NCBI GenBank assembly: GCA_030615235.1 | Contig: JAUWZR010000001.1 | Coordinates: forward strand, 1 to 60,603 | Length of the DNA stretch: 60,603 bases | DNA from: Promethearchaeota archaeon | Lineage (GTDB): Archaea; Asgardarchaeota; Lokiarchaeia; Sigyniarchaeales; SOKP01 | Direction: 5' to 3' | Shown here: positions 1,778 to 58,365 of the stretch, one piece after another | Position numbering within the stretch: position 1 is the stretch's first letter | Layout: each line of letters starts with the position of its first letter | Notes under the pieces: model-generated | What the model saw: the letters and a program-made list of their open reading frames with translations, nothing else | Databases searched by the model: none | Told to the model about the DNA's origin: nothing | Position numbers and translations under genes: made by a program

Positions 1778-1793
1778 TTTATAGTCTCTATTC

Positions 1794-2900: not shown

Positions 2901-2937
2901 ACAGAGGGATTTGTAATTGTTGTCGGTATAAAGTTGT

Positions 2938-31088: not shown

Positions 31089-31524
31089 TACCGTTACTCT
31101 TGAGGATTTAGATGAAATCTACAATTTAGAAAGAAAATCTTTTAAGAAGGACTCATTTTCTAAAGATTTAATTCTTAATTTGATATTAAAGAACGAATAT
31201 TTTTTTAAGCTCATTAATGACGAACTATCGAACGATATCATAGGATTCATCATTGTTATTCAAGATCGAGACGATAGCGTAAACATGATTAACCTTTTAA
31301 TTAGAAACGGGGAAAGAAAAAGAGGCTATGGGAGTTTTCTTTTAAAATACACCCTGAAAAAAGTGATTGCATTGGATAAGATAAAAACAATTGTATTGAA
31401 TGTGAACTCTAAAAATAAAGCTGCTATAAGCTTGTATCAAAAATTTAATTTTCGAATTGTCCAAAGAATAGAAAACTATTATCGGGATAAGCAAAGCGCT
31501 TACTTAATGATATTGAACATTTAA
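31078..31524 (+). CDS. GNAT N-acetyltransferase (RimI/Ard1-like)
   Basis: The RKRGYGSFLL acetyl-CoA motif (Q/RxxGxG/A) is followed by LNVNSKNKAAISLYQKFNF. It overlaps the previous gene by 11 nt. Confidence 0.8.
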   Translation: MIIDTVTLEDLDEIYNLERKSFKKDSFSKDLILNLILKNEYFFKLINDELSNDIIGFIIVIQDRDDSVNMINLLIRNGERKRGYGSFLLKYTLKKVIALDKIKTIVLNVNSKNKAAISLYQKFNFRIVQRIENYYRDKQSAYLMILNI

Positions 31525-33039: not shown

Positions 33040-34080
33040 ATGAATGATAAAATACAATATATAGACAAAACCTCGAAAATCCCTCTAATGGGAGTAGATT
33101 TTTTAGGGATCATTGATAGAGGGACAAATGTAATCGAACTTAAACCAATTACTCTTTGTAATCTCAAATGCAAGTACTGTTTTGTAAGTTCTGGTAATTA
33201 CGACACTAACTTCGTCGTAGATTCCAACTACTTAATTGAAAAAGTTCTAGATCTTGTCAGAATAAAAGGAGATTATAATCTCGAAATTCACCTTTCACCT
33301 TATGGAGAGATATTACTTTACAAAGAACTCGAAAACCTTTTAAAAAAACTCTCAGGTATCAAAGGAATCTCAATTACATCAATGCAATCTAATGGCTTAT
33401 TACTTTCGAAACCAGTTATTAATAAATTAAAAAAATCCAAACTCACTCGGATTAACATAAGCTTAAATAGTTTAAAAGAGGAGATGGATCGTTATCTATG
33501 TAATTGTACTCAGTATGATATCGACAAGCTTATTAAAAATATTTATACACTGATGAACTCCAACATACAGGTGTTGATCGCACCAGTATGGTTTCCCGGA
33601 GAAAACGACAAGGATATTGAAGAAATTATAGAATTTGTTCTTAATGTAAGGAATGAGGGATATTCAGAGAGTCAATTACAAATAGGTATCCAGAAATATT
33701 TAATTTACAAGACTGGTAGAACCCTAAAAAAAGTACAATCAAAATCTTGGGATTATTTTTATTTATATTTATCTAGGTTGGAGAAAAAATTCAAGATAAA
33801 ATTAAAACTTGGCCCTAAAGATTTTGGAATTCATAAACGAAAAAGCGTATCAACTTTGAATCTTAAGAAAAAAGACTTAATTAAAATAGAAATAGTTTCC
33901 AGGGGAAGGTGGGAAAATGAGTGTATTGGTAAAATCCATAATTCTCTTGGGATAAAGGTATTATTGAAAAAACCACTTGTTTTTTCGGATGAACTAATTG
34001 GAAAATTTATTGAAGTAGAGGTAATTAAAGCAAATTATAAAGATAATATACTCACTGCCTTATTTCCTCATAAATTGTAA
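33040..34080 (+). CDS. Radical SAM protein
   Basis: Canonical CNLKCKYC (CxxxCxxC) lies near the N-terminus. The C-terminal ~70 aa could be a beta-barrel (TRAM-like) domain. Confidence 0.8.
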   Translation: MNDKIQYIDKTSKIPLMGVDFLGIIDRGTNVIELKPITLCNLKCKYCFVSSGNYDTNFVVDSNYLIEKVLDLVRIKGDYNLEIHLSPYGEILLYKELENLLKKLSGIKGISITSMQSNGLLLSKPVINKLKKSKLTRINISLNSLKEEMDRYLCNCTQYDIDKLIKNIYTLMNSNIQVLIAPVWFPGENDKDIEEIIEFVLNVRNEGYSESQLQIGIQKYLIYKTGRTLKKVQSKSWDYFYLYLSRLEKKFKIKLKLGPKDFGIHKRKSVSTLNLKKKDLIKIEIVSRGRWENECIGKIHNSLGIKVLLKKPLVFSDELIGKFIEVEVIKANYKDNILTALFPHKL

Positions 34081-38213: not shown

Positions 38214-39722
38214 ATGGAACATAATAAATTATCTTTAGAATATGATAGAAATTTAATCAATAGCATCCTAAATAATAAAAATACTAAATACACGATTCTC
38301 TATTTATACATAATTAGAAAAGACTTATTTAACAATTTAGATGAGTATCTAATACATCAATATGAAAGAGCGATAATCTTGGATGACATTTACAAGAATG
38401 ATGTTGAATTACTTTGGGATCAAGAATTTATTGAAAAAGTGATAGACTTCAGGTTATTTAAGAATATTAGAAGTTATAGAGAATATGATCAAAAAGAAGG
38501 TAATTTTATTATAAAAATGGGAGAATATACAATAACTATTGAAAAAAACACAATATTAACCCCAAAAGAAACACTTTTCCGTATAATTACAAAGAGATTT
38601 AAATCACTAAATCGGAGAGATTTTGAATTAGGTCTTACTAAGCTAAAAGAAGTAAGATGTGAGGTGAGTGGGATGGTACATCACTTTATATATGAAGTCG
38701 GAGATGATGACTATGTATTGTCTGATGATTTTTATGATATTCTAGATCAATTTGGTAATATTTACCAAGCTATTAAAATTGAGCCTACTTCTGATGGATT
38801 ACTTGAAATATGCAAAGAAATTAAAAAGAAAATTTATAATATTGTTATGATTTTCGATCCAATCTTGAATAATAAAAGTGTTATTAAGAAACTTAACAAA
38901 GCTTTAGATATCAATAAAAAAGAAGACGAACTCGAAATTACAGAAATCGCTATTATGCTTAAAATGTTAGAGAAGGATATTATCCTTTCAATATCAAATA
39001 TAGATTTCCAAATATTATGTAATTATCAAGATGAAATGGAGAGAATCAATAAACAATTAATGAAGATTAAATCCAATTATACTGGAAATCAGGATTATCT
39101 TAAATTTCTTGAAAATATTCCATTAGAAATTAAGGAAATTCAAGAAACTTTGATAAAAATAAGAGATAATGCATCAGGAGCAAAAAGAGCAGTATCAGAA
39201 TTAGAAAATAGAATAAAATCTAGAGTTTCTGGTGAATTTGATATTTTACGTGAGAAGAAGGAAATTTTTTATCAAGAAATTGAAATTGACTCTTCAATTG
39301 ACTCATTACTTCAAGCTTGTAAAGAAATTAAAGATAAGACTGTTAATATTATCCGAATTTTTACTCCAATTTTGAATAATGAAGTTATTATTGGAAAAAT
39401 TAAAAAAACATTAGAAAAAAATGAAGATTTTGTTAACCTTAAAGAAAAAAAAACACTTGAGATAGCAGAAATATCTCTTAATCTAAGAGTAATACACAAA
39501 AATATTAGATTATCATTATCAAATACAGATTTTCAAATATTAACAAACTATAAAGATGAATTGGAAACATTATATAAAAAATTAAATGATATTGAGTCAG
39601 GTGCAACAGAAGATAAAATTTCTCAAGAGAATTTAAATGAAATGAGAGAAAATATTATAGGAGCAAGAAAATCGGTTTTAGATATAGAAAATAGAATGAT
39701 TATAATAAAAAATAACAAATGA
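38214..39722 (+). CDS. Island gene 1: coiled-coil protein with an internal ~170-aa tandem duplication
   Basis: Unit 1 has LLEICKEIKKKIYNIVMIFDPILNN ... SNIDFQILCNYQDEMERINKQL ... GAKRAVSELENRI. Unit 2 has LLQACKEIKDKTVNIIRIFTPILNN ... SNTDFQILTNYKDELETLYKKL ... GARKSVLDIENRM. Confidence 0.6.
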   Translation: MEHNKLSLEYDRNLINSILNNKNTKYTILYLYIIRKDLFNNLDEYLIHQYERAIILDDIYKNDVELLWDQEFIEKVIDFRLFKNIRSYREYDQKEGNFIIKMGEYTITIEKNTILTPKETLFRIITKRFKSLNRRDFELGLTKLKEVRCEVSGMVHHFIYEVGDDDYVLSDDFYDILDQFGNIYQAIKIEPTSDGLLEICKEIKKKIYNIVMIFDPILNNKSVIKKLNKALDINKKEDELEITEIAIMLKMLEKDIILSISNIDFQILCNYQDEMERINKQLMKIKSNYTGNQDYLKFLENIPLEIKEIQETLIKIRDNASGAKRAVSELENRIKSRVSGEFDILREKKEIFYQEIEIDSSIDSLLQACKEIKDKTVNIIRIFTPILNNEVIIGKIKKTLEKNEDFVNLKEKKTLEIAEISLNLRVIHKNIRLSLSNTDFQILTNYKDELETLYKKLNDIESGATEDKISQENLNEMRENIIGARKSVLDIENRMIIIKNNK

Positions 39723-39733
39723 AAATGATTTAA

Positions 39734-40699
39734 ATGGAATGTCCATCTTGTAAGGTTGAAATGGAACCATTGGTTGTAGGAATTTTTCAATGTCCTCAAT
39801 GTAGAAAAATAATTAAAGAAAAAGATAAAGAAGCTGATACTTCGGCGGAATTAAAAATAGAGGAAGGAGATTTTCAAGATGGGGAATATTTTCATAAAAA
39901 AGTTAGCATAAATAAGAAATATGAAGTATGTGAGAAAGGGATTACTATAAGTAAAACAGAAAGTCGTCTACTTGCAGCATTGATTTGTCATAGTTCTTAT
40001 TTGAAAGAGGAGAAATATGTTAGATTGTCATGGTGGAAAAATTCACAGCATGCAGGTATGTTTAAAATTTATGATAAAGATGTACTTAATAATATTATTA
40101 TAGTTTTGGAAGAATTTGAGGAATCCTTCGATGATTTTTGGACTTGGAATGGAAAATATGGAAAGCAAGAACCAAAAACAGAAAAAGAATTAGAAAAAGA
40201 AAAAACTTTAGAAATTATCAAATATAGAATTCTTGAAAATAAAACATGTCCAAAATGTTCAAAGAAAATGGATAAAAAGAAATCCTATTATGAGTGTCGA
40301 CACTGTGGAGAAATAGTTATCTTAGAAGGATATAATCAACCCATTTTCAATATTATGACAGCAGATCTCGATTTACGCTTTCATGGAAATTTTCCAATAA
40401 ATTTCTACTTACCAGTAAGTGGTATAACTGTAAAATGGTTGATGGGTGAATGGAAAGCATTAGTAGTTATCTATTCAAAAGACAATCCAAATAAAAAATG
40501 GTTAAGATTTTACTGGTGGGCACGAGATCTAAGTACCTTTTTAAAAAATGGACAAAGAGAAATGGGAGAAGGGACTCAAATGGGTTGGAAAGCTCAAAGA
40601 GGAATGTCTTCCCCAAATATTTATGATAAAAAGCTTGTTAGACCTCTAATTAACGCTTTAAAAAAAATATCAATTGAATTAAAATGGGAAAATAAATAA
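39734..40699 (+). CDS. Island gene 2: protein with two modules, each a zinc ribbon plus a WW-containing segment
   Basis: Module 1 is CPSC-x14-CPQC then YVRLSWWKN. Module 2 is CPKC-x12-CRHC then WLRFYWWAR. Confidence 0.55.
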   Translation: MECPSCKVEMEPLVVGIFQCPQCRKIIKEKDKEADTSAELKIEEGDFQDGEYFHKKVSINKKYEVCEKGITISKTESRLLAALICHSSYLKEEKYVRLSWWKNSQHAGMFKIYDKDVLNNIIIVLEEFEESFDDFWTWNGKYGKQEPKTEKELEKEKTLEIIKYRILENKTCPKCSKKMDKKKSYYECRHCGEIVILEGYNQPIFNIMTADLDLRFHGNFPINFYLPVSGITVKWLMGEWKALVVIYSKDNPNKKWLRFYWWARDLSTFLKNGQREMGEGTQMGWKAQRGMSSPNIYDKKLVRPLINALKKISIELKWENK

Positions 40700-40715
40700 T
40701 AATGAGGAAATTCAT

Positions 40716-41969
40716 ATGTCAATTCTAGAATCTAAATGGGAAGGATTATTAGATGTCTTTTCTGAAGGATTAGAAAAAGCAATTGAAGAATTGAAGAATA
40801 AAGATGTTGAAAATATCCCTGGAGCTAAAGATGCCCTATTAGATAGACTAAATGTTCTAAAAATCCAATTTACTCGAAATAAAGGAGAGCTCTTCGAAAG
40901 AGTTATAGATAATTCTATTCAAAATGCCTTCTTTCCAAAAACTTCGAATTTTGCAGAAGCTTTTAGTAAAATCCTTAAATCTAGAACTCATGAGCAAGAT
41001 TACATCATCAACGAATTATTAAATGGATTTGTGACTTCAAAAGTTAAAGCTATTGCATCCTATAATCAAGGGCCAATAATCGATAGAATGGTTGAAGCGT
41101 TTGCTAAAAGAAGTGATTTTCATATAGTTGATCATCAATTTTTTGCTATGTTTGGAGATCCTAATAAACCGCGTAATTATGTGAAGAAACAACTTGAAGG
41201 GCTTGTCAATTTGTTTGGACTCGTATCCAAAGAACTCGTAATTAAAAAGGATGTTAGAAGTAGCGAAGAAAAAGTATACACTTTCTATACATTTCCTCCC
41301 GAAATATTAGCAATTTTAAAGGAGAAGTACATAATTATCGAAGAAAATGAAAATGAAGTAGAAAAAGGCGAATTAGAAGAGGAGGATAAGGAAATTGAAC
41401 TTGCAATTAGTGTGGATAAAAAAACTAATATAAATGCTTTAGTTTATGCGCATGTATCAGAAGCTTTTGATAGGAATGTGTTTATAAGCCTCTTTTTAGC
41501 AAATATTGCTGTAAATAGAAAAGACTCCGAAGAAATAGGTGGCTCATATACCATAAATGGTATCTCTGCTATTTTTGCTTTAATTCTTTTATTAAGTCTT
41601 TTACCTAAACTAAATGTACAAGCAACTAATCCAATTCTAAAAGATCCATCTTTTGATGATCAAAAAATGAGTATAATCCCTAAATCTTGGATGGTGAAGC
41701 AAGTATTAGAAGCGTTATTCGAGCCGTTAATAAAGATTGTTGCTTTTAGGTTAGGTGGAGGACTTTGGTTAAATCAAATAAAAGATACAGAAATTAATAA
41801 AAAAATTCATAATCAAATAAGATTTCTTTTAAAAGACGTTAATAAATGGATTTTAGGTAATTTATGTCGTGTTGAAATTCCAATTTTCGTAGAACTATCA
41901 AATATATATACAGAAGTTACATTAGATGTCGGTAGAAATGAGAAGTCATTAGAGGATGATGATGAGTAG
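40716..41969 (+). CDS. Island gene 3: hypothetical protein (417 aa)
   Basis: Operonic ORF with short gaps and an acidic C-terminus. No recognised motif. Confidence 0.5.
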   Translation: MSILESKWEGLLDVFSEGLEKAIEELKNKDVENIPGAKDALLDRLNVLKIQFTRNKGELFERVIDNSIQNAFFPKTSNFAEAFSKILKSRTHEQDYIINELLNGFVTSKVKAIASYNQGPIIDRMVEAFAKRSDFHIVDHQFFAMFGDPNKPRNYVKKQLEGLVNLFGLVSKELVIKKDVRSSEEKVYTFYTFPPEILAILKEKYIIIEENENEVEKGELEEEDKEIELAISVDKKTNINALVYAHVSEAFDRNVFISLFLANIAVNRKDSEEIGGSYTINGISAIFALILLLSLLPKLNVQATNPILKDPSFDDQKMSIIPKSWMVKQVLEALFEPLIKIVAFRLGGGLWLNQIKDTEINKKIHNQIRFLLKDVNKWILGNLCRVEIPIFVELSNIYTEVTLDVGRNEKSLEDDDE

Positions 41970-43251
41970 AAGAAGATTTACTGAAAGAGTTAGATCGGGA
42001 AGAAGCAGGGAAAAGTGGACGGATATTTTACCTAAATATCTGACACATATTAGTCATATGCAGCCAGTCCTTAAAGAAACGCGGAGGATCATAATTGAAT
42101 TAGATCCTATAATATTTTTAGAGCCTGAATTAGAAATATTAGATCAAATTAGGCAGGAAGAAGAAAAAAGAGGCAGACGTACTGTAAGAGCCTTATCTGA
42201 ATTTTCGGCTATGTATAGATCAAATATATATGAAATTATTATAAATTTTATCATAAATTTTAGAGGAAAAATCGAACCAATTGAATTAAAAGATTACATC
42301 ATAGATCATTTATATGAGGCTATTAAAGCATTGGATATCTTACAAAAAATCACTAATCCAGACCAACGGGATTTAGATAAAACATATCTTTACCTTTTAG
42401 TTAAGTTCATTGAAGAAATTATATTTCCAAAGGGTAATAATATAGAAAATAGATATGATAAATTGCTTTTAAATTCAAAAGATTACTATGAATGTCAAAG
42501 ACATTTATTACAAACTCATACGTTTTATCGAGAAAAGTTAAAAAATCCAGAAGGTTTCACTATTCCCGGTATTTCTCCTAAAGTTTATCAAATAATTAAT
42601 AATATAACTTCATTGTTTAATTTGGAACCTAACTACGGAGAATTTCCTGAAAGATCTGGCTACGAGATTCCTCTTCTTTTGAAAAATGATGTGTTTGAAC
42701 CATATATTGAATCAATTGCAAATGCTGAAGAAGAAGCAATTGAAAATATTGCTGAAAGAATAGGACTAAGAGTTTTGGATGGCATCTTTCTAGCCCCACA
42801 GGCAGCATTTGTAGAGATATTACTAAAGCATAATTTTTTAAGGGAAGAAACTCAAGAAGATGGGAAAATCCGTTATGTTCCTCAATTTAGTAACGAAACC
42901 TTAGTTTTGTATTATTCCGCGTTTGCATCTTTACGAAGGGGTTTTTTATCGAAAGAGCTCGTTAATTGGATAGCAATGAATTTCGCGCTAGTTATATATA
43001 TGGGAATTTTAAAATGGAAGTTGTCGGATGATAATATATTCTATGGAATCTTCAAAGATTTGCAGACCAGTGAAAAAATCTTGCCTTATTTAATGAAACT
43101 CTCTAGTTTCCCTAACTATTTAGGAATGGAAAAAATGAAAATCCGAGATAGTATTCAATATAGAAAGGAAATATTCAATTTTATCGGATCTCAAATTGAT
43201 AATTTAAAAGAATTAATTGATGAAGTATCAAAATATTGTGATCAAATTTAA
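41956..43251 (+). CDS. Island gene 4: hypothetical protein (431 aa)
   Basis: Overlaps gene 3 by 14 nt. No recognised motif. Confidence 0.5.
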   Translation: MMMSRRRFTERVRSGRSREKWTDILPKYLTHISHMQPVLKETRRIIIELDPIIFLEPELEILDQIRQEEEKRGRRTVRALSEFSAMYRSNIYEIIINFIINFRGKIEPIELKDYIIDHLYEAIKALDILQKITNPDQRDLDKTYLYLLVKFIEEIIFPKGNNIENRYDKLLLNSKDYYECQRHLLQTHTFYREKLKNPEGFTIPGISPKVYQIINNITSLFNLEPNYGEFPERSGYEIPLLLKNDVFEPYIESIANAEEEAIENIAERIGLRVLDGIFLAPQAAFVEILLKHNFLREETQEDGKIRYVPQFSNETLVLYYSAFASLRRGFLSKELVNWIAMNFALVIYMGILKWKLSDDNIFYGIFKDLQTSEKILPYLMKLSSFPNYLGMEKMKIRDSIQYRKEIFNFIGSQIDNLKELIDEVSKYCDQI

Positions 43252-44591: not shown

Positions 44592-45044
44592 ATGTTTGAT
44601 TTAGATTATGATACAAAATACGTCTCTGTAGTTATTGAGTTTAAATATAACTCTAAGAGTAGTAAAAATATACCTAATGAAGTCAGAGAGGCTTTTATGG
44701 GGTTATATCCTCCTAAACACCCAAGTGGAAGAGGAAGTCCAATTTTAAGGGATATTAATAACTTATGCAATCCTAATGAAGAGGTTCTTTATCCGATTCA
44801 CTTTTCTTTAATTAAAAAGCCCGTTAAAATCGATTTGCCTGGAGTAAGAGAATATAAATTAAAAAATACAGCTGTGGGGGCAATAATTTTATATGAATAT
44901 ATAGGCCTTCTTGATGATTATAAAGATTGCTGCCTTAAAATAGCTGACTTTTTAGAGAAAAAAATTAAAAAACCTAAATGGTATTCAGAAATCACTTCAA
45001 TTAAACTAATTATAGGGTACGATTTAAAGGATGTCGCAAAATAA
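44592..45044 (+). CDS. Island gene 6: 150-aa protein, paralogue of 47206-47670
   Basis: Shares REAFMG, PPK.P.GRGSP, PIHFSLIKKP and NTAVGA.ILYEY.GL blocks with the 154-aa ORF on the other side of the Rad50-like gene. Confidence 0.6.
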   Translation: MFDLDYDTKYVSVVIEFKYNSKSSKNIPNEVREAFMGLYPPKHPSGRGSPILRDINNLCNPNEEVLYPIHFSLIKKPVKIDLPGVREYKLKNTAVGAIILYEYIGLLDDYKDCCLKIADFLEKKIKKPKWYSEITSIKLIIGYDLKDVAK

Positions 45045-45165
45045 AAAAATAATAGAAGAAATTGTTGATTATATTGAATCTTCAATTCGAGATGGTTTAG
45101 ATGAAGCAATTTTTATTAAAGAATTTCGGAATAAAATAGAAAAATATCTGAGTGAAAAGCAATAA
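45031..45165 (+). CDS. Possible 44-aa helical mini-protein translationally coupled to the Rad50-like gene
   Basis: The ATG at 45031 overlaps the end of the previous gene. Its stop forms TAATG with the 45165 start. Product is MSQNKKIIEEIVDYIESSIRDGLDEAIFIKEFRNKIEKYLSEKQ. Confidence 0.3.
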   Translation: MSQNKKIIEEIVDYIESSIRDGLDEAIFIKEFRNKIEKYLSEKQ

Positions 45166-47174
45166 TGAAAGCAGTCTTAAAATTAGTAAATATTGGGCAA
45201 AGAGAAGGGGAAGAAACTTGGGAATTTAACAGTGGAGTAGTAACAGAGATCAGAGGACGAACAGCTTCTGGTAAAAGCAGAATACTTAAATCTTGTGCAT
45301 TAGCTTTATCAATTCCAATAATCTCAGAAGAAATTAGAAATACTGCTATAAGTTTTGGAATTGCAAAAGCAGATAATGCAAAATTTTCACCCCTATTGAA
45401 TTCGAATAAAGAAAAAGCCATTATTGAACTTCATTATGATGAAGTTAAAAAACTTGTTGAAATAAATCGTGATGGTTCTGAAAAAATAAATATTCCTGGA
45501 AATCAAAAATTTATTTATTGTAGTATGCTAGTAGAAAATTCTAAAATACAAAATTATATCGATCATGGCCTATCTGATTTTTCATGGATAGTAACTGAAA
45601 TGTCCTTAGCAAAAGATTATGAATCAATAAAGGACATTGTTGGATCTTATACAGATTTAATTACAGCTAAAAAAGAAGAAATTCAGATAAAGGAGAATAA
45701 TAAAAAAAAGTTTGAGGGAGAATTTAAAAAAAAAAAAAGTGACCTAGCAGAAGTAATTGAGAAAATAAGACTACTCGAAGTTAATATTGAACAGGAGCTA
45801 GAAAAAATTGAATCGAATACAGAATTGAAAAATGAACGTAAGAAAATTATTGATGAACTCAAAGATAGACAAAAAATTATTATGGATACTGAAAAGAAAT
45901 TCCTTAGTCTAAAGAAAACTGTTACTGATCTAGATAATAAGATAAACGAAAAAAACACACAAATTGAAGATGAAACGGAAAATTTGGATAAATTGGAACA
46001 GAAAAAAAAGAAATATATGAAAATAGATGTGAGAAAATTAAATAACGAAATTAATCAGCTACATGAAGAAAATACGATGAATCTTGAAAAACAAAAGTTA
46101 TTATTACCTGAGATTAGTATATTAGAAAACAGCAAAAAGAAGTACGAAGGTATTTTAAGAGAACTAGATAAGACAAAAGAAAAAAAGGTTCTCTGTTGGG
46201 TTTGTGGGGGAAAAGAAATAGAAAGAAATGATATTGAAAACGATTTAAAAAGCACAAGAGATAAATTAACTCCTAAACGCGAAAAATATAGAGATTTAGA
46301 CTCTCAGATCGAAGAAAATAAGAATAATATAGATGATAAACAGAAAGATAAGGCAAAAAATGCTAAACTTCCTGATGTAAAGAAAAAAGTTGCATTGTCA
46401 AGAAATAAATTGATAAAACTAGCAGAAGAAAATAGCATTAATGTAGAACAAAAAAATAAGGAAGATATGGATATAAAAAGGTTTACAACAATTATCGAGA
46501 GTCGGAAGAAAACCATTAATCAATTAATAGAAAAAAGAAATGAAATCGAAAAACAAATAATTGATGATTCTCAAATGAACAAAACGAGGGAAGAAACCAA
46601 AACACAAAATACGAATAAGGGTGCTATTGAAAACCAAATCTCAAATTTAGAATTAGCCATAGATGATTGTAAAAGTATAGAAATTTTTAAAAAAGAATTT
46701 GATCTTTTAAAAGCAAAAAAAATTGTTCAAGAATTTGATGACATCTTTGATAATATTAATTTTCATCTAGAATTGAATATAAAAAAACAACGAGAAGGAG
46801 CTGCACATAAGTTCAATGAAAATATTGAAAAAATAATTGAAGAACTTAAATTGCCTAAATTTGAAAAAATTTATCTAGATATTGAAGATAATAATAAATT
46901 AAAAATTATAAGAAAAGGTAACCCTGACCCTCAAGCAATTAACTCTCTGAGCGGGGGTGAGAGAGTAATTGTTTCATCATTACTACAAATATCTGCTAAA
47001 GAAACTTACAATCCTGAGATACCCTTTATTGTTGGTGATGATATTATTATAAAAATGGATGAAGATCGTAGAGAAATTTTCTATAACTATTTAAAGAATA
47101 TTGCTAAAGATAATGATTGGTTTGTGATATTAACCAGAGTTACTGATGAAGATTTGGTAAAAGTAGAAATTTAA
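45165..47174 (+). CDS. Island gene 7: Rad50/SbcC/DndD-like SMC-family ATPase with a central CxxC hook
   Basis: N-terminal P-loop GRTASGKS, about 450 aa of Lys/Glu-rich coiled coil with CWVCGG at its centre (46194-46211), C-terminal signature LSGGERVIVSSLL, and Walker B-like PFIVGDD. Confidence 0.8.
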   Translation: MKAVLKLVNIGQREGEETWEFNSGVVTEIRGRTASGKSRILKSCALALSIPIISEEIRNTAISFGIAKADNAKFSPLLNSNKEKAIIELHYDEVKKLVEINRDGSEKINIPGNQKFIYCSMLVENSKIQNYIDHGLSDFSWIVTEMSLAKDYESIKDIVGSYTDLITAKKEEIQIKENNKKKFEGEFKKKKSDLAEVIEKIRLLEVNIEQELEKIESNTELKNERKKIIDELKDRQKIIMDTEKKFLSLKKTVTDLDNKINEKNTQIEDETENLDKLEQKKKKYMKIDVRKLNNEINQLHEENTMNLEKQKLLLPEISILENSKKKYEGILRELDKTKEKKVLCWVCGGKEIERNDIENDLKSTRDKLTPKREKYRDLDSQIEENKNNIDDKQKDKAKNAKLPDVKKKVALSRNKLIKLAEENSINVEQKNKEDMDIKRFTTIIESRKKTINQLIEKRNEIEKQIIDDSQMNKTREETKTQNTNKGAIENQISNLELAIDDCKSIEIFKKEFDLLKAKKIVQEFDDIFDNINFHLELNIKKQREGAAHKFNENIEKIIEELKLPKFEKIYLDIEDNNKLKIIRKGNPDPQAINSLSGGERVIVSSLLQISAKETYNPEIPFIVGDDIIIKMDEDRREIFYNYLKNIAKDNDWFVILTRVTDEDLVKVEI

Positions 47175-47205: not shown

Positions 47206-47670
47206 ATGAATAGTGGAGATAGATATGTTTTAGTAATAGCTGAATTACAATATGATTCGAAAAAACCTAGATCAATAGTAAATGATATTAGAGAAGCTTT
47301 TATGGGAATTGTACCTCCTAAATATCCCGAAGGAAGAGGAAGTCCAAATATTTCGAAAAAAATTAGAGATATGTGTAAAATTGATAAAGATATTATTGAT
47401 CCTATTCATTTCTCTTTAATTAAAAAACCTGAAAAAATAGTCAATGCTGAAGGAAGGACCTACACAATAAGAAATACTGCCGTTGGTGCTATGATATTAT
47501 ATGAATATTTAGGTTTAGCTAAAGATTTGAGAAGATTCCTCAATATTTTTGATGAATACCTCAAAAGATTGATAGAAAGCAAAAAACCACAATTTTTCTC
47601 TTATATTACTAACTACGATATAATAATAGGTAATAAAATAAATGATATTTCAGTAACTGAAAACATATAA
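47206..47670 (+). CDS. Island gene 8: 154-aa protein, paralogue of 44592-45044
   Basis: Carries the same conserved blocks as gene 6. Confidence 0.6.
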   Translation: MNSGDRYVLVIAELQYDSKKPRSIVNDIREAFMGIVPPKYPEGRGSPNISKKIRDMCKIDKDIIDPIHFSLIKKPEKIVNAEGRTYTIRNTAVGAMILYEYLGLAKDLRRFLNIFDEYLKRLIESKKPQFFSYITNYDIIIGNKINDISVTENI

Positions 47671-47740
47671 AGGGATTTATCTAAAATTCTATTTAATTAT
47701 GTTATTTTTTATGTCTTAAACCCTAAATATTTAAAATATA

Positions 47741-48343
47741 ATGAAAATACCAGATTTTTCAGAAAAAGATTTTATTGGGATAAATGGAGTAGGAAGAGCA
47801 CAATTATATCATCCTCATTTTGATGTTTGGCAATCTTTTTTCAGAAATAGTTTTAGAATTGAGGGAAGCATAAGTAGTATAATTTTTTTGCCGTGTGCTG
47901 CTATTAAACCCTATTATAATTCTCCAATCCATCGAGTTTTCAATAAAACTATTGACAAATACAAAAATATTCAAAAATTTGTCATATCAAACGCGGGTTT
48001 AATACCCTATGAATTCTGTGATCGGTATCCATTCGAATCTTATGATTGGAATCCACTTTTTGAGACAGAAGAAATAAAAAATGAATATATGGAAGCTATA
48101 AGTACAAGAATATTTGACTTCTTTAAGAATAGAAAAATTAATATTAAAGTTAAATTCATTTCTTATTTAAGGAACGATTCAGAATCGCTGAACTCACTAA
48201 AAATTGCTTTCAAAAAATTAAAAATGAATTTGGAAATAATAAAAATAACTGGAAAACTTCATGAGACAGCAGATACTGACTTATTATTAACATTAGAAGA
48301 AAATTTAATACGATTAAATAAAAAGTTAAAATCATTTGAATAA
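47741..48343 (+). CDS. Island gene 9: DUF5591-like (archaeosine-synthase ArcS C-domain-like) protein
   Basis: IIFLPCAAIKPYYNSPIHRVF resembles the PC-x3-KPY-x-S-x-H block I associate with the ArcS/DUF5591 domain. It lies 8 nt upstream of a TGT-like gene. Motif-level call only. Confidence 0.45.
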   Translation: MKIPDFSEKDFIGINGVGRAQLYHPHFDVWQSFFRNSFRIEGSISSIIFLPCAAIKPYYNSPIHRVFNKTIDKYKNIQKFVISNAGLIPYEFCDRYPFESYDWNPLFETEEIKNEYMEAISTRIFDFFKNRKINIKVKFISYLRNDSESLNSLKIAFKKLKMNLEIIKITGKLHETADTDLLLTLEENLIRLNKKLKSFE

Positions 48344-48351
48344 GTATTTTT

Positions 48352-49404
48352 ATGGATTATTGGGCAGGAGAATTAGGAAATAATTTTATCGAAGGAATAC
48401 AACACGGCAATGTCATGGATAGTGTGTATAATTTTCTGAAATCAGAGGAGCCCAAAATAAAATATCCCTACGAAAATTTATTTTTAGACAATGGCGCCTT
48501 TTCAATATTTAAGAATAACTATAACAAGAAAAAGAATGAAGTACAAATAAATCTTAATAGCATCATCGATATCCAAGAAAAACTCAAACCAAAATTTACA
48601 ATTCCTTTCGATTATCCATTAGATCCCCAAATGAATATTAAAAATATGGAACAAAATTGGCAAAAAACAGTGAAAAATGTTGATTATTGGACTAGTTGTA
48701 CTAATCTTAATCTTGTTCCTGCGCTGCATGGATGGAACAAAACTTCTCTAAATAAAAATCTTCATTTATTACAAAAAAAAGATTTTGATTACATAGCTTT
48801 AGGAAGTGCCTTTATTCTAAAGGAGAAATTCAAAGGATTTTTTGGAGATCGCCAACCAAATAAAAACATTTATGAAGCATTTTTATACCTCAGTTCCCTA
48901 GGTAAAAATCTAGGTATTGATATTCATGTATTTGGACTTGGAGCTTCTCCATTGACTTATCATTTTGCTGCGTTCTGTGAAATCAAAAGTTCTGATTCTT
49001 CAGGATATAGGAGAAAAGCAGCATACGGAAAAATTATCTTACCTCAAACAGCAGAAAGATATGCCGGTAATGGAAGTGCTACTTTTGGATTAAAAACTAA
49101 AAATGGATTGACTTATAAGAAAATCTTTTCTAATGAAGAAAAGAAAAAATTAGCCGAGTGTGGGTGCCCTGAATGCCGAAAAATATCCAAACATGGATAC
49201 CGTCGATGGAAACATTTATGTTCCGATTGGAAAATTAGAGCAATTCATAATAAATGGGTAATGGAACAGGAAGAAAAGATTTCCCACGAGTTAATTCAAC
49301 AAGGTTGGGATTGTTATGAAGAATTTATTAATAAAATGATGGAGAAATCTCGCTTAAAATGGCTTTGGGCTTTTATAAGAAAAACAAAACAAAAATATTT
49401 TTAA
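48352..49404 (+). CDS. Island gene 10: small tRNA-guanine-transglycosylase-superfamily protein without a PUA domain (DpdA-like candidate)
   Basis: The TGT zinc site and following helix are CGCPEC-x21-AIHNKW (CxCxxC ... HN). FLDNGAFSIF resembles the catalytic DSGGFQ block. At 350 aa it lacks the N-terminal ArcTGT start motif and PUA. Confidence 0.65.
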   Translation: MDYWAGELGNNFIEGIQHGNVMDSVYNFLKSEEPKIKYPYENLFLDNGAFSIFKNNYNKKKNEVQINLNSIIDIQEKLKPKFTIPFDYPLDPQMNIKNMEQNWQKTVKNVDYWTSCTNLNLVPALHGWNKTSLNKNLHLLQKKDFDYIALGSAFILKEKFKGFFGDRQPNKNIYEAFLYLSSLGKNLGIDIHVFGLGASPLTYHFAAFCEIKSSDSSGYRRKAAYGKIILPQTAERYAGNGSATFGLKTKNGLTYKKIFSNEEKKKLAECGCPECRKISKHGYRRWKHLCSDWKIRAIHNKWVMEQEEKISHELIQQGWDCYEEFINKMMEKSRLKWLWAFIRKTKQKYF

Positions 49405-49539
49405 TATAATTATATTCTTGAACGATATTATTTCTTCCAGTCTCAGGATATTTCTTTTTGTAGTTTATTCTCAATATATTTAATTATGTTCTTTGGTATA
49501 ATTTTTCTTCAAACCATTAAAATAAATTTAAAAAATAAA

Positions 49540-54005: not shown

Positions 54006-55379
54006 ATGAAAAAGGATTTTGAATTGAAAGAAAAGACAGCTATAAATTTTCTTAAAAAGTACAATAAAAATGCTTATGTCTGTTTTTCAGGGGGTAAAGA
54101 TAGTCTAGTCGCCCTTGATTTAGCCATTAAAGGCGGAATTGATAATGTTGTATTTTGCGATACTACTATGGAATTTCAAGAAACTCTTGATTACATTAGA
54201 AGAGTAGAAGAATTTTATGATATAAGGGTGGAATCAGTGACTGCCCCTGTGCCATTTTTTGAACTTGTATATAAAATTGGGGTCCCATCGAGAAGATTGA
54301 GATGGTGTTGCAAGGTTTATAAATTTTCTCCACTCGCGGTATTCGCAAGAGAGAACAAGGTTAAATCTTATATAACAGGCTTAAGAAGTGAAGAGAATGT
54401 TAGACGTAAGCATTATAGCAAAAATGATGAGAATCATTTAATAGATTCAAAACAAATAAATCCTATTCTTGATTGGTCAAGTCAAGATATTTGGGATTAT
54501 ATTATGCGAAATAATCTACCTGTTAATCCACTGTACAATTTAGGATTTAAAAGAATAGGGTGTTGGCCATGCCCATTTAAATCTAAGGTAGATTGGAGTT
54601 TGATTAAGAAGTTCTTCCCAGATAAATCAAAATTACTAGATAAAACCTTGAGATCTATCTTAAAGAATTGCGAAGGTGTGGGAATTAAGAATTTAGATGA
54701 TTTCATAAAAAATTTTAAATGGACTGCTTATAGTAGGCCGCAAAACTCTGAATTACAAGGGAAAATAGAATTTATTGATGGTACATCTTTAATTCATTTA
54801 GAAAATACGAGCGATCTCAAAAAAGTAGAAAAAATTATTCCAATATTATCAAAAGAATATGAGGTAATTAGAAATTCGATTATGATAAAAAGCAAACTCC
54901 GCAAGCAAAGTCTCAAAATCCTCGTAGAAAAAGCTCTAAATTGTGTAGGTTGTGGTACATGCGTTGCTTTTTGTAAGTCTTTAAGAATAGAAAGAAACCA
55001 TTTAGTTGTTGATAGTCAAAATTGTACTTCATGTTTAAGATGTATTAAAACTAGTACAATGAGGGGAGCTTGTATAATGAGAAATTTTTCTCCATATCGT
55101 ATTGAAATTGGTACTTGCCAAAATTTTTCAGTAGAAAATGAAATTCCTTCATTAAATAGTCGTGTTGGCTTGATTAGAACAAGAGCTAAACTGGAAGATA
55201 TAATAGAAAAATTAGAAAAACATGCTGAAATTAAAAAATTCACTCAATATGTCTCCATAAAAAACGGAAAATTGTCAGCAACAGCATATAAGTCAAGAGG
55301 GTATGTGGAAATTAAAATTTACCCTAACAATAATGACTTAGAAATTACAATGAATTATTTCAGAGGGATAATCACTTAA
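54006..55379 (+). CDS. PAPS-reductase-family PP-loop ATP pyrophosphatase (DndC-like) with a C-terminal 2x[4Fe-4S] ferredoxin-like domain
   Basis: PP-loop VCFSGGKDSLVALDL, RWCCKVYKFSPL and GCWPCP blocks of the PAPS reductase/DndC family. CVGCGTCVAFC and CTSCLRC Cys clusters follow. Confidence 0.75.
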   Translation: MKKDFELKEKTAINFLKKYNKNAYVCFSGGKDSLVALDLAIKGGIDNVVFCDTTMEFQETLDYIRRVEEFYDIRVESVTAPVPFFELVYKIGVPSRRLRWCCKVYKFSPLAVFARENKVKSYITGLRSEENVRRKHYSKNDENHLIDSKQINPILDWSSQDIWDYIMRNNLPVNPLYNLGFKRIGCWPCPFKSKVDWSLIKKFFPDKSKLLDKTLRSILKNCEGVGIKNLDDFIKNFKWTAYSRPQNSELQGKIEFIDGTSLIHLENTSDLKKVEKIIPILSKEYEVIRNSIMIKSKLRKQSLKILVEKALNCVGCGTCVAFCKSLRIERNHLVVDSQNCTSCLRCIKTSTMRGACIMRNFSPYRIEIGTCQNFSVENEIPSLNSRVGLIRTRAKLEDIIEKLEKHAEIKKFTQYVSIKNGKLSATAYKSRGYVEIKIYPNNNDLEITMNYFRGIIT

Positions 55380-55449: not shown

Positions 55450-56343
55450 ATGACAAAATATGATTTATTCAACTTGGAAAAAATCCAAGAATTAACTAGC
55501 CCGATTGAAGAATTTGAAGGAAAAATAGTCAATTTTGGGATTAACTTTGAAAGATTTCGCAAAACTAGAAATAAAACTCTCCATAAGATAAAAGATCAAT
55601 TATTTATAGAAGAAATTGAACAAATCTTTCTTGAATTTGACACACTCTATAAGCAATTATCTAAACAATCAATTAATATTATTTTAAAATTTCTCTTTTT
55701 TCAAGAAAAACTTACGAAAGAACATGCAATTTTATTCAAACAAAAATTAAAAGATTCTAATTTAAGATTAAACGAATACGGATTACATTTAATTGAAACT
55801 AAAAAAATCCGTAGAATTCATGATAACACCTTAGTGATCTTTGCCCCATCTTTAGATCTATGGTTAGAAGTATTAAACTCATTAAAGAGAAATTCTCTAT
55901 ATTTATCTTTTATAGAGAAGGCTAAGATTATTTTAAAAACTAAGGAATATATACCTATTGAAGAAATTTCTACTCAAAATGAACAAACAATAGAAAAAGA
56001 ATCTAAATCTGAACTTAATAAATATGAAGAATATCTTAAATATACGAATAAGGAATTTCAAAAAAGGAGACGGAGAGAAAAAAGAACTAATTTAGTAAAA
56101 CTTCAAGAAAAACCAGCTATCCAAATTGAGGTAACTAAGGAGGTAACAGAGAAAATTGAAGAATATAAATCTAAAATGAAAACTGACTTCAATAGGAAAT
56201 ATTTTATTCAAAAAGATGAAGAAAAAGATCCAGTATCGTTAATAAAAGATTTAAAAAAAAAAAAAAAGGAAGAATACAAAATACATTTAGAGAAAATACA
56301 GAAAAAGAAATCAGGTGAAAATTCAGATACTAGAACGAATTAA
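55450..56343 (+). CDS. Hypothetical protein with a Lys/Glu-rich C-terminal half
   Basis: 297-aa ORF that overlaps the next gene by 29 nt. Confidence 0.45.
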   Translation: MTKYDLFNLEKIQELTSPIEEFEGKIVNFGINFERFRKTRNKTLHKIKDQLFIEEIEQIFLEFDTLYKQLSKQSINIILKFLFFQEKLTKEHAILFKQKLKDSNLRLNEYGLHLIETKKIRRIHDNTLVIFAPSLDLWLEVLNSLKRNSLYLSFIEKAKIILKTKEYIPIEEISTQNEQTIEKESKSELNKYEEYLKYTNKEFQKRRRREKRTNLVKLQEKPAIQIEVTKEVTEKIEEYKSKMKTDFNRKYFIQKDEEKDPVSLIKDLKKKKKEEYKIHLEKIQKKKSGENSDTRTN

Positions 56344-57847
56344 TATAGCAGATAATGAAATTGATATAAAAAATCAATTTACACTTATACTAGGTAAATT
56401 TAAAAAAGAACAAATAAATCAGTTTCAAGAATTTAATACATATGATTTATTTGAGGATTTTAATGTTATATCTTTTGAGACAATTTTAACTATATTTAAA
56501 AATGAAATACATAATGTAAACTTTCTAAGATTTGTTGAAATTCTTGATCCTTTTCTTAACACTACCAAATTTTTTATTCAATTAATAGGAAAATACAGTG
56601 AATTAACTCAATTTTTTGATCAATCTTTACGACTTAGGATATTTGCAAGTGAAAATGAGAATTTAGAAAAACTCTTAGAAATTCGGAAGAAAATAGATGA
56701 AAAAAACACACCAAAAGTAAAAGAAATTTTAGATGAAATCAGAGATTTAAATAATTTGATTATCGAAGAAATAAAAACATTAAATTATTTAGAAGAGGAT
56801 TTTATTAACCAAAAAATGAAAATTGATCGATTTAACAAATCAATAAACAATCTTCAGATAAAATTAAAGAATTTAGACACACAAAAAAAAAAGGCGCTTA
56901 AAAAAATTAGTGTAATAACAGGAGAAAATGAAGATTCAAGAGATATGGATGAGGAATTAACAGATTCTCAAAGGATTTTAAAATTTCAACAACAAGTTAG
57001 AGATTTTAATTATGAAATGAAGAAAATTAATGAGAATATTCATAAAGAGAGTACCGAATTTCGAGAGTTTAAGCTCAATTTTTTGATAATCGAAGAAGAT
57101 TATAAACTTCTCAAAAGCACAATAAATGGTTATAATAACAAATTAAATGAACTTAAAAAAGAATTATCTAAAATTATTGATACAGAATTAGGTGATTTTG
57201 AAATGTCCGATCTCCTCAAATCACATAATCAAATTATTAAACATTTCGAAGAAAATGACCTTAAAATAAAAAATATTCAAAAACATAAATTTTTTGACAA
57301 AAACCAATCCGATGCTCTATCAACTATATATAAAGAATTAGTTAATATCAAGTCTAATCTAACTAAAAATAAAATTAATTTTACTAAAGATGATATAGAA
57401 AAATCTGTAGATTTTTATCAAAATATTGAATCTAAAATTATAATATTAGAAGAAATAATCAATAAATTTTTAATGCAAATCTATTTGAAATATTCCCTCG
57501 AAATTACAATAAATGATAATAAGAATTTATTTATTAAACAAAAATTCTTCCAAATAAGAAAAAAAACCACTCTAAACTTCAATGAATTGACAACTCCAGA
57601 AAAAATTTTTTTCTTAATTGTCTTAGATATTTCATTGAGAATTTTATTTAATAAAAAAATAATTTATTCGAATATGTTTTTACCAGTAATCTATAATAAA
57701 CAAGGTTCAATATTTCGAACTTTAAAAAAAATTATTCCAGTGTTCGAAAGGGAAACTGAACTTCAAGACATTAGTTTGATCTTTATTTTATCTAATATAG
57801 AAATGAAAGAAAGAATAACGAATTTAGATGTTATCAAAATCAAATAA
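56315..57847 (+). CDS. SMC/Rad50-like coiled-coil protein with degenerate ATPase motifs
   Basis: The N-terminus KIQILERINIADNEIDIKNQFTLILGKFKKEQ has the strand pattern of an SMC head, but GKFKKE replaces GxxGxGKS/T. A long coiled coil follows. The C-terminal LTTPEKIFFLIVLDISL sits in place of LSGGE. Confidence 0.45.
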   Translation: MKIQILERINIADNEIDIKNQFTLILGKFKKEQINQFQEFNTYDLFEDFNVISFETILTIFKNEIHNVNFLRFVEILDPFLNTTKFFIQLIGKYSELTQFFDQSLRLRIFASENENLEKLLEIRKKIDEKNTPKVKEILDEIRDLNNLIIEEIKTLNYLEEDFINQKMKIDRFNKSINNLQIKLKNLDTQKKKALKKISVITGENEDSRDMDEELTDSQRILKFQQQVRDFNYEMKKINENIHKESTEFREFKLNFLIIEEDYKLLKSTINGYNNKLNELKKELSKIIDTELGDFEMSDLLKSHNQIIKHFEENDLKIKNIQKHKFFDKNQSDALSTIYKELVNIKSNLTKNKINFTKDDIEKSVDFYQNIESKIIILEEIINKFLMQIYLKYSLEITINDNKNLFIKQKFFQIRKKTTLNFNELTTPEKIFFLIVLDISLRILFNKKIIYSNMFLPVIYNKQGSIFRTLKKIIPVFERETELQDISLIFILSNIEMKERITNLDVIKIK

Positions 57848-57882
57848 AGAAGTGAAGATATCTGAGTAAAAATCAAAAAGAA

Positions 57883-58365
57883 ATGATAAGAGAAATTGCA
57901 AAGCTAATTTTAACAAATAAAAAGAAAATGGTAAAAGAAGAAGATTTAATAAGACTCTATGATAAATCTACTTCGGATTTTGACGAAACTTTTAAAGATC
58001 TATATGAACAATTTAATAAACTAGGTTTTGAACTTATAAAGTCAGAATTTCAAGGGAATAATTATTATGTTTTAACATCAGAAGGTAAGGATGATAATAT
58101 AACTCCAAGCCAATATGGTAGTTTAGCACTTATTGCTGCATTATCTAAGGAAGTAAATGAGAACATAAAAATTGAGGATCTAAAAGAAATATTCAAAGAT
58201 CAATGGAATTTAGATATTAAATTTCTTATAGATAATGATTTTTTAAGGAAAATTGACGATTTGGGAATAGTTAAAATAACTCCAATCGGAAAAGCTATAT
58301 TAAAAGAAATTCTGCCTGATTTATCACTAGACACACTATTAGATATATTTGAAGTTGAAGAATAA
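57883..58365 (+). CDS. Hypothetical 160-aa protein, last gene of the island (possible winged-helix)
   Basis: Operonic with the preceding genes. It has a weak resemblance to small wHTH partners of SMC-like proteins, which is not enough for a call. Confidence 0.35.
   Translation: MIREIAKLILTNKKKMVKEEDLIRLYDKSTSDFDETFKDLYEQFNKLGFELIKSEFQGNNYYVLTSEGKDDNITPSQYGSLALIAALSKEVNENIKIEDLKEIFKDQWNLDIKFLIDNDFLRKIDDLGIVKITPIGKAILKEILPDLSLDTLLDIFEVEE

Follow-up and report, generated by a model that had tools for sequence, protein, structure and literature searches.

A predicted 7-deazaguanine DNA-modification pair in a defence island of a Lokiarchaeal genome

The stretch of DNA analyzed here (the window) comprises 60,603 nucleotides (nt) of a Promethearchaeota archaeon (GTDB lineage Archaea; Asgardarchaeota; Lokiarchaeia; Sigyniarchaeales; SOKP01; GenBank assembly GCA_030615235.1, contig JAUWZR010000001.1, positions 1 to 60,603 of the forward strand). 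Within an island of about 20 kb it carries two genes on the plus strand, separated by a gap of 8 nt (48344-48351), whose products resemble the archaeosine enzymes ArcS and ArcTGT. The original prediction, made from the letters alone, regarded them as a candidate pair for inserting and tailoring a 7-deazaguanine base in DNA, not tRNA; its coordinates, the zinc site of tRNA-guanine transglycosylases (TGTs) and the DSGGFQ-like block were all found as quoted.

47741..48343, plus strand: stand-alone DUF5591/ArcS-C1 ("ArcS2-like") protein, 200 amino acids (aa), recognized by a Pfam DUF5591 match and the ArcS motif
48352..49404, plus strand: TGT-fold transglycosylase without a PUA domain, 350 aa, of a putative new DpdA-like clade, recognized by the Pfam TGT match, catalytic residues, fold and a match to STSV2_15

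The 200-aa product matches the Pfam family DUF5591 (PF17884) with 44.6 bits, against a gathering score of 26, which bears out the earlier recognition of a DUF5591-like gene. It contains the complete PC-x3-KPY-x2-S-x2-H motif (PCAAIKPYYNSPIH); the PC/KPY/S/H block had been noticed correctly, but with the spacing x-S-x-H instead of x2-S-x2-H. In 25 aligned homologues P51, C52, K56, P57, Y58 and S61 never vary and H64 hardly does, and this conserved residue set is, judged from the alignment, exactly the ArcS-specific motif. All 108 homologues found contain PF17884. The full ArcS architecture (N-terminal TGT-like, C1, C2 and PUA domains) is not present in this single-domain protein, which scores 36.7 bits with the ArcS equivalog NF040592 (cutoff 440) and covers only profile positions 293-355. 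Its structure model has a predicted local distance difference test (pLDDT) value of 87.9, and AF0587 (2q07) is its sole relative in the PDB, by sequence or fold. The protein is predicted to be a tailoring enzyme for the 7-substituent of an inserted deazaguanine.

The 350-aa product passes the gathering score of the Pfam TGT family (PF01702; 35.4 versus 26.3 bits), and both Pfam matches are curated-threshold hits, not chance. The segments FLDNGAFSIF, CGCPEC and AIHNKW are all found in it. Among 5.8 billion proteins searched, 190 homologues were detected, every named one archaeal (from Loki-, Hel- and Freyarchaeota, Methanobacterium, Methanothermobacter and Nitrosopumilaceae). Residues invariant among 25 of these homologues include D46 (LFLDNGA), D87 (PxDYP), D166/R167 (GFFGDRQP), G195/G197/S199/P200, D215 (DSSGYRRKAA), C270, C272, C275 and H299. 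When the profile of the 25-sequence alignment was compared with the PDB, one real relative was recovered, the ArcTGT of P. horikoshii (E 3.9e-8), in which D95, D130 and D249 align with D46, D87 and D215, and C279/C281/C284/H307 with C270/C272/C275/H299. The Gloeobacter Glr2806 chain also returned by this search (E 0.0067) looks spurious, with no significant aligned stretch, and no DpdA structure was matched. The three Asp act as general acid/base, base-recognition residue and nucleophile; TGTs and DpdA share them without variation, and DpdA requires them (PMC10164549). As far as these alignments indicate, the catalytic apparatus, with its base-exchange and zinc sites, is intact.

The AlphaFold model (pLDDT 85.7) consists of a TGT TIM barrel and zinc subdomain, and the chain ends in the helices of the latter; no PUA or other C-terminal domain was found in Pfam and NCBIfam scans or in the model. 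The description of the protein as a PUA-less TGT is therefore upheld, with the three Asp and the Cys3-His site kept. The top Foldseek matches in the PDB (1iq8, 7nq4 and 1q2r; E about 1e-10, TMq 0.63-0.67) are the catalytic domains of ArcTGT, human QTRT1 and Z. mobilis TGT, and in a BFVD fold search phage DpdA-type proteins (nt-1 and phiST included) ranked first, with scores similar to those of tRNA TGTs. Similarity was accordingly set aside as a guide to a DNA or a tRNA role: in PDB sequence, fold and BFVD comparisons alike, tRNA TGTs and phage DpdAs score the same way. The curated functional models gave 24.2 bits for the ArcTGT equivalog (TgtA, TIGR00432; cutoff 350), 15 bits for the bacterial DpdA equivalog NF041059 (cutoff 200) and 14 bits for the PADLOC DpdA model. 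Because both proteins lie above the Pfam gathering scores and far below the equivalog cutoffs, they are placed in the superfamilies and outside the curated functional families. The term "DpdA-like" thus suits a PUA-less, intact TGT and does not extend to membership of bacterial DpdA; the family appears to define a clade of its own, outside bacterial DpdA and ArcTGT and apparently undescribed, and its member in the window is predicted to be a DNA guanine/7-deazaguanine base-exchange enzyme.

The TGT-like family is distributed sporadically, in Asgard archaea (Loki and others), Methanobacteria, Nitrososphaeria and Bathyarchaeia. With two family-invariant peptides as probes, nine loci were found among 185,579 GTDB species, one genome each, a rarity that is incompatible with a housekeeping archaeosine enzyme. 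An exhaustive profile search indicated that the core family is small, at about ten clusters at 50% identity, and that a score gap divides it from 300-570 other clusters of non-canonical PUA-less TGT paralogues. Such second-tier paralogues (P0238-P0376) score 41-122 bits with the ArcTGT model and, where the DpdA model matches, 21-61 bits with that model; some have further C-terminal regions fused to them (690-717 aa), in one case with a Csa3-like helix-turn-helix. The sole plasmid match, on the mobilizable cyanobacterial plasmid6 of Aulosira laxa NIES-50 (locus L105, AP018313.1 11501-12562), is bacterial TGT-like and 28% identical to the protein in the window; upstream of its gene are those for a "putative exonuclease" and for a 1041-aa protein that resembles SbcCD in size and annotation alone.

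The distribution bears on the possibility that the pair makes up a minimal archaeosine machinery in split form, paralogous to ArcTGT/ArcS or taking their place, in which the TGT-like protein would insert 7-cyano-7-deazaguanine (preQ0) at G15 of tRNA and the DUF5591 protein would make archaeosine (G+). Archaea with split ArcS and ArcTGT genes are known (PMC10516641), the best PDB matches of the two proteins are ArcTGT and AF0587, and ArcTGT has the same catalytic and zinc residues. We nevertheless consider a tRNA role very unlikely: the pair has no PUA, C1-C3 or C2 tRNA-binding domains, both equivalog scores fall far short (ArcTGT 24 versus 350; ArcS 37 versus 440), and the few genomes that carry the family keep it in islands that also hold genes for a helicase, a nuclease, HerA or a PCNA-like protein.

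A precedent for the pair is found in viruses. When compared with 50,697 phage and virus records by tblastn, the TGT-like protein matched only the Sulfolobus viruses STSV1, STSV2 and SSV-4 and two Synechococcus phages, and the DUF5591 protein matched these viruses together with Vibrio phage nt-1, its close relative CZ01 and Methanobacterium virus PhiF1. For both proteins the best viral matches are neighbouring genes of STSV2, STSV2_15 and STSV2_16, and the two homologues are also adjacent in STSV1. The TGT-like protein is about 25% identical to STSV2_15 (tblastn E 3e-8, blastp E 4e-15), which shares the family-specific D-x-S-x-YR-x-KA-x-x-G-x-x-x-LP-x-x-x-ERY-x-G sequence after the nucleophile Asp, the blastp alignment ending before the Cys cluster of the window protein; the DUF5591 protein is 33% identical to the STSV2_16 ArcS2 (tblastn E 1e-9) and 30% to the ArcS2 of phage nt-1 (tblastn). 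The window thus holds an STSV-like arrangement, a PUA-less TGT adjoining a DUF5591-only protein, with both similar in sequence. A profile comparison with the nt-1 DpdA2 gave no meaningful alignment (probability 9%).

STSV2_15 and STSV2_16 have been published as DpdA and ArcS2, and the DNA of STSV2 contains dCDG (2'-deoxy-7-carboxy-7-deazaguanine; PMC10516641). In E. coli, DpdA2 and ArcS2 of nt-1 together gave rise to 2'-deoxyarchaeosine (dG+) in plasmid DNA, and DpdA2 alone to 2'-deoxy-preQ0 (dPreQ0) (PMC10516641). The same study already noted the pairing of DpdA with a DUF5591-only ArcS2 in viruses, as well as stand-alone C1 domains in archaea (PMC10516641). The window pair resembles the viral pairs (STSV1/STSV2, nt-1) in joining a PUA-less TGT to a DUF5591-only ArcS core with PC-x3-KPY-x2-S-x2-H, and differs in its reversed order, with DUF5591 first, and in identities of only about 25% and 33%. 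Moreover, the viral pairs have an anti-restriction role, whereas the window pair is cellular, chromosomal and situated beside restriction-like modules. A split pair had been called unusual for a cellular archaeal island; its place in such an island is confirmed, yet it is neither unprecedented, in view of the documented viral pairs, nor a Lokiarchaeal oddity, since its family occurs in several archaeal lineages.

In PhiF1 (locus L007, MK994522.1 72368-73018), the DUF5591 gene is 46% identical to that of the window, and an in-frame stop 5' of its annotated start suggests truncation. No TGT-like gene was found in PhiF1 by tblastn, and this virus may depend on a TGT-like enzyme of its host.

To place the pair in its family context, 98 loci with a family member, mostly metagenomic fragments, were gathered with family-specific peptide probes; 80 were left after near-identical ones had been removed. 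Open reading frames (ORFs) were called in six frames and clustered by single linkage on all-against-all BLAST, and the tree of the TGT-like proteins is a simple neighbour-joining one. Partners were counted in those 41 loci whose TGT-like gene is flanked by 1.5 kb or more upstream and 1.3 kb or more downstream:

protein of about 417 aa encoded directly downstream: 21 of 41 loci
DUF5591 protein encoded directly upstream: 15 of 41 loci
neither partner: 5 of 41 loci

Almost no locus combines both types of partner. The protein of about 417 aa, encoded right after the TGT-like gene in 42 loci altogether (e.g., L003, L005 and L059), has an N-terminal half that is PCNA/9-1-1-like: one representative matches PCNA_N (34.9 bits), Rad9 (31.3 bits) and PCNA_C (27.6 bits) above threshold, and 11 of 23 members have PCNA_N or PCNA_C matches. 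Its C-terminal domain and part of the first protein encoded by the NurA/HerA module described below are homologous (hhalign 95%). A stand-alone PCNA-like protein of about 254 aa, homologous to the clamp half (hhalign 97.5% and 90%), accompanies the pair in 5 of the 15 DUF5591 loci. No account of the archaeal TGT clade or of its PCNA-like partner was found in the searchable literature, and a dedicated clamp for a base-exchange enzyme appears undescribed. The presence of a clamp partner in sister clades argues for DNA as the substrate.

In the tree, partner type tracks the TGT clade, and three modules, located either upstream or downstream, are shuffled among the clades:

R1: AAA ATPase, 315-aa protein, DpdJ-like helicase (PADLOC 136 bits), MZB-domain protein and DpdK-like PLD nuclease
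R2: 282-aa protein, AAA protein of about 1185 aa, NurA and HerA
R3: the Lokiarchaeal set of the window

In the cultured Methanobacterium formicicum BRM9, the TGT-like gene (BRM9_1170) and the DUF5591 gene (BRM9_1171) have a PCNA-like gene on their upstream side and R1 on their downstream side; Methanothermobacter sp. EMTCatA1 is another cultured carrier, and CP006933.1, CP147778.1 and OZ244732.1 are complete genomes that carry the family. The signature of restriction-modification-type defence is a modification gene that serves as anchor, a partner that co-evolves with it, and helicase, nuclease or translocase genes that can be exchanged. Occasional neighbours are QueC (five loci in total, two of them duplicates), nucleoside-deoxyribosyltransferase-like, HAD and PD-(D/E)xK genes. 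In L003/L004, L005 and L045-L049, from Nitrososphaeria and Freyarchaeia, genes for a nucleoside 2-deoxyribosyltransferase-like protein, QueC, a HAD-phosphatase and a PD-(D/E)xK protein recur beside the TGT-like gene, and they may supply or salvage the deazaguanine base.

With effector-like genes as neighbours, the TGT-like enzyme might itself be an effector that acts on invading viral DNA, excising or exchanging guanine or a viral 7-deazaguanine and leaving adducts or abasic sites. Defence glycosylases against 7-deazaguanine phage DNA do exist (bioRxiv 10.1101/2025.10.29.685425), and a clamp partner could scan foreign DNA. This role seems improbable to us, as a full base-exchange apparatus with its zinc site, the ArcS-type pairing and the QueC of some loci suit biosynthetic marking better, and separate nuclease and helicase modules are already at hand.

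The remaining genes of the island in the window are as follows:

38214..43251, plus strand: four conserved genes (502, 321, 417 and 431 aa) that open the island upstream, with synteny in L009, L018 and L019
43357..44571, plus strand: IetA-like AAA+ ATPase, 404 aa (PADLOC IetA 202 bits; NCBIfam IteA 182 bits, cutoff 510)
44592..45044, plus strand: c153a, 150 aa, a paralogue of c153b (130-nt repeat D1, 72% identity)
45031..45165, plus strand: conserved, unannotated 44-aa ORF, MSQNKKIIEEIVDYIESSIRDGLDEAIFIKEFRNKIEKYLSEKQ (57% identity, E 1e-11, in tblastn with the 45-aa product of L104)
45165..47174, plus strand: SMC/Rad50-like ABC ATPase of the archaea-specific SMC-related protein (ASRP) type, 669 aa (NCBIfam ASRP 183 bits, cutoff 300)
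47206..47670, plus strand: c153b, 154 aa, right upstream of the pair, orthologue of the gene for about 131-149 aa that follows the DGQHR gene in L101-L104
49540..51879, minus strand: HerA/FtsK-type ATPase with a long N-terminal region, 779 aa (PADLOC HerA 60 and mad8 59 bits), orthologue of the DUF87 genes for 778-782 aa in L101 and L104
51886..52236, minus strand: 116-aa protein paired with HerA, orthologue of a 122-aa gene product of L104
52398..53921, plus strand: winged helix-turn-helix and DGQHR (DGQQR) ParB-like protein, DpdB/SspE-like, 507 aa (motif WILDGQQRMWAL)
54006..55379, plus strand: BrxP/SspD-like PP-loop enzyme of the PAPS-reductase fold, 457 aa, its C-terminal region being of the 4Fe-4S ferredoxin type
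55450..58365, plus strand: three genes (297, 510 and 160 aa) that close the island downstream, with partial synteny in L009 and L019

Synteny over the block from 38214 to about 58365 extends to Lokiarchaeal relatives with 70-91% TGT identity, L009 (Loki_b32), L018 and L019, and for the IetA-like gene to L026 and L030 as well. Housekeeping genes for eRF1, an Elf1-like protein, Lsm and HypB bound the island. No significant Pfam or PADLOC matches were obtained for the four upstream and three downstream genes, and profile, PADLOC and Pfam searches found no PCNA-like, R1 or R2 proteins among these seven. For c153b, which is possibly an adaptor, Pfam, NCBIfam and PADLOC returned no family matches; the idea that the c153 paralogues form a split PCNA-like clamp was rejected, with hhalign values of at most 1.5% against the c417, c254a and c254b profiles. 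The HerA/FtsK-type ATPase is predicted to be the restriction-side translocase, and possibly a nuclease. Its N-terminal ~250 residues hold, by eye, D...E-F-K and QTCLY motifs like those of RecB/Cas4-type PD-(D/E)xK proteins, with no support from Pfam, PADLOC or the PDB. Neither the window nor any locus examined showed DUF328/DpdC.

A low G+C content (0.25-0.30, against about 0.33 in the flanks) sets the island apart, as might be expected if the pair belonged to a mobile element, shielded the DNA of that element from host restriction and had no functional relation to the flanking defence genes. The experimentally characterized DpdA and ArcS2 pairs are all viral anti-restriction devices, and PhiF1 has the related DUF5591 gene described above. 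Such an origin is unlikely on the evidence of the island, which yielded no genes for an integrase, a capsid, a terminase or replication, and of the family, which is nearly absent from viral collections (one partial match among the 2.9 million contigs of IMG/VR, in addition to the STSV-type viruses and two cyanophages) and whose pairing with restriction-like modules is conserved across clades. A 23-nt direct repeat (20/23 identical) at 47690-47712 and 49477-49499 brackets the DUF5591-TGT pair. Chance is unlikely for it by shuffling, yet the repeat is absent from all related loci, and the region has 18 short repeats of this kind; it was rejected as a cassette scar and is probably a chance or promoter-like AT-rich element.

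Three other parts of the window deserve mention. Positions 1-3000 have a GC skew of +0.62 to +0.66 and plus-strand ORFs at 476-1153 and 1794-2900, the latter with the HUH-like motif LPHFHLLYDF; no tandem repeats were found there, and this part may be a rolling-circle Rep gene or a small integrated element at the contig end. At 29233-31524, genes for a nucleotidyltransferase, a radical-SAM protein (383 aa) and a GNAT acetyltransferase are clustered, and a second radical-SAM gene (346 aa; 33040-34080) lies beside eRF1.

Relatives of the Lokiarchaeal set were found through the DGQQR protein, the ORF of which begins 2994 nt past the stop of the TGT-like gene. It scores 83.2 bits with the DGQHR domain TIGR03187 (cutoff 58.85), 82.8 bits with the DpdB equivalog NF041060 (cutoff 300) and 98.8 bits with the PADLOC DpdB model (profile positions 25-366 of 370), and has 28 detectable homologues; PDB sequence searches with this protein and with the 779-aa HerA gave no matches. 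Four more distant homologues (30-50% identity), located on Asgard contigs from metagenomes and metagenome-assembled genomes (L101-L104), all lie in one conserved operon with the order HerA (about 780 aa, on the opposite strand), small protein, DGQHR, a protein of about 131-149 aa, a 45-aa protein, SMC-like protein (about 640 aa), PglZ (930-950 aa) and PAPS reductase (466-484 aa). Neither a TGT nor a DUF5591 gene is present in the L101-L104 operons. By tblastn, the window contains orthologues of their HerA, 116-aa, DGQHR, SMC-like and PAPS reductase genes, of the c153 gene in two copies and of the 45-aa gene, the counterpart of which occupies the same position as in L104, overlapping c153a where that gene ends and the SMC-like gene where it begins; the SMC-like ATPase is 37% identical to the 641-aa gene product of L104. 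PglZ was sought in the window with the PglZ proteins of L104, L103, L101 and L024, without a tblastn match. As the order in the window is c153a, 44-aa ORF, SMC-like, c153b, DUF5591 and TGT, the pair and a duplicated c153 stand at the position of PglZ in the relatives. In L024, with 70% TGT identity, the order is PglZ, PAPS reductase, DUF5591 and TGT.

The L101-L104 operon looks like an undescribed BREX-type-4/Ssp/Dnd-like system of Asgard archaea, of which the window would hold a PglZ-less version. PglZ, BrxC, BrxL and DUF4007 were not found in the window by Pfam and PADLOC (PglZ also by tblastn), while PglZ is present in L101-L104 and L024. The PAPS reductase (Pfam PAPS_reduct 137.9 bits with Fer4 matches; PADLOC BrxP 173 and SspD 72 bits) has the Cys-rich ferredoxin-like region of BrxP/SspD, and a PP-loop enzyme with such a region has been described for type-4 BREX and Ssp phosphorothioation systems (PMC12839542). 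It is encoded directly beside the DUF5591-TGT pair in L024 and L025, and beside the TGT-like gene in L037; from its adjacency in these three arrangements one might speculate that it acts on deazaguanine carboxylate or nitrile chemistry, instead of or beside phosphorothioate. The original prediction had pointed to a DpdB-like DGQ(H/Q)R protein 3 kb away. Its presence and its DpdB-like score are confirmed, but its orthologues in TGT-free operons speak against a dedicated partner of the TGT, and we assign it to the BREX-4/Ssp-like HerA system, although it may cooperate with the TGT in the hybrid of the window.

The observed gene identities, catalytic motifs, fold, family distribution and conserved, modular neighbourhoods are, in our judgment, probably best explained if the pair is the 7-deazaguanine modification module of a Lokiarchaeal defence island of about 20 kb, acting on DNA and not on tRNA, a reading that rests on sequence, modelled structure and the neighbouring genes. 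DNA is favoured over tRNA by the sporadic distribution, the defence-island neighbours, the PCNA-like partner in sister clades and the homology with the STSV1/STSV2 DpdA and ArcS2. In the mechanism that we propose, the 350-aa enzyme would flip a guanine out of double-stranded DNA, with D215 as nucleophile and D46 as general acid/base, and pass through a covalent enzyme-DNA intermediate; the guanine would then be replaced by a free 7-deazaguanine base, most likely preQ0, by double displacement as in TGT and DpdA. Since the island is without preQ0 synthesis genes, preQ0 would probably come from the archaeosine pathway of the host. The 200-aa DUF5591 protein would convert the 7-substituent on the DNA, most likely to a formamidino group (2'-deoxyarchaeosine) or a related amide or amidine. 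The mark would label self DNA, and the HerA-type translocase, SMC-like ATPase, IetA-like AAA+ protein, DGQQR ParB-like NTPase and PAPS reductase would act against unmarked DNA, these surrounding genes being a BREX-type-4/Ssp-like unit that also occurs without the pair.

Several points weigh against this interpretation. Similarity alone does not decide the substrate, because the TGT-like protein is at least as near to tRNA enzymes as it is to viral DpdAs, and it lies below the curated DpdA models (NCBIfam 15 versus 200; PADLOC 14). The product, dG+ by analogy with nt-1, is uncertain given that STSV2, the closest characterized relative, carries dCDG. The DGQHR/SMC/HerA/PAPS-reductase unit occurs elsewhere without the pair, so that the coupling could be mere co-location in a defence island. 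Neither preQ0 synthesis genes nor a PCNA-like partner were found in the island of the window, and 7-deazaguanine in cellular archaeal DNA is not described in the searchable literature.

Comparison with named systems shows both kinship and differences. As in bacterial Dpd, a TGT paralogue predicted to mark DNA with 7-deazaguanine lies beside helicase and nuclease genes, with DpdJ-like (136 bits) and DpdK-like proteins in sister loci and a DGQHR/DpdB-like protein in the window; the usual partner of the archaeal family, however, is a PCNA-like clamp or DUF5591 instead of DpdB, and the TGT falls outside bacterial DpdA. The pair shares fold, catalytic Asp, zinc site and C1 motif with ArcTGT and ArcS, and differs in being accessory and island-borne and in lacking the C1-C3/PUA domains of ArcTGT and the N-terminal, C2 and PUA domains of ArcS. 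BREX-related capture (BRC) systems are built on HerA and PglZ and can, as an option, include a TGT homologue (PMC12839542). With BRC, type-4 BREX and Ssp, the island has in common a HerA/FtsK translocase, a BrxP/SspD-type PAPS reductase, PglZ in its relatives and a TGT homologue as an extra, but DUF6079/BrxC, STAND, DUF4007, GNAT, BrxL and cysteine desulfurase genes are replaced by DGQHR, an SMC-like ATPase, two proteins of about 150 aa, the 44-aa ORF and an IetA-like AAA+ protein, and PglZ is absent. DUF5591 has not been reported for BRC, which is an analogue of the window island and not the same system.

The chemistry and the DpdA/ArcS2 pairing in viruses are already known, as is Dpd restriction-modification in bacteria, and a 2026 review-type paper lists bacteria, phages and archaeal viruses as the only three groups with 7-deazaguanine in DNA (PMC13329287). 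Beyond the window, we tentatively propose, with less confidence than for the pair itself, that Asgard archaea, Methanobacteria, Nitrososphaeria and Bathyarchaeia mark their own chromosomes through the new DpdA clade together with a clamp or an ArcS2-type enzyme, and not DpdB, and that in the Lokiarchaeal window the module was grafted in place of PglZ into a BrxP/SspD-type HerA/SMC/DGQHR system, so that one island would write two chemically distinct marks. The window would in this way illustrate how modification modules are swapped into BREX/Ssp-like HerA systems of Asgard archaea. Since cultivable methanogens carry members of this distinct archaeal DpdA clade, the question is open to a direct test. 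If the proposal is correct, fusion to or pairing with a PCNA-like clamp would represent a new route to processive DNA access, as opposed to the ATP-dependent ParB-like DpdB of bacteria, and the marks would have consequences for how archaeal DNA is cut by restriction enzymes, basecalled on nanopores and cloned. The family would then constitute an archaeal counterpart of bacterial Dpd restriction-modification with plug-in restriction modules.

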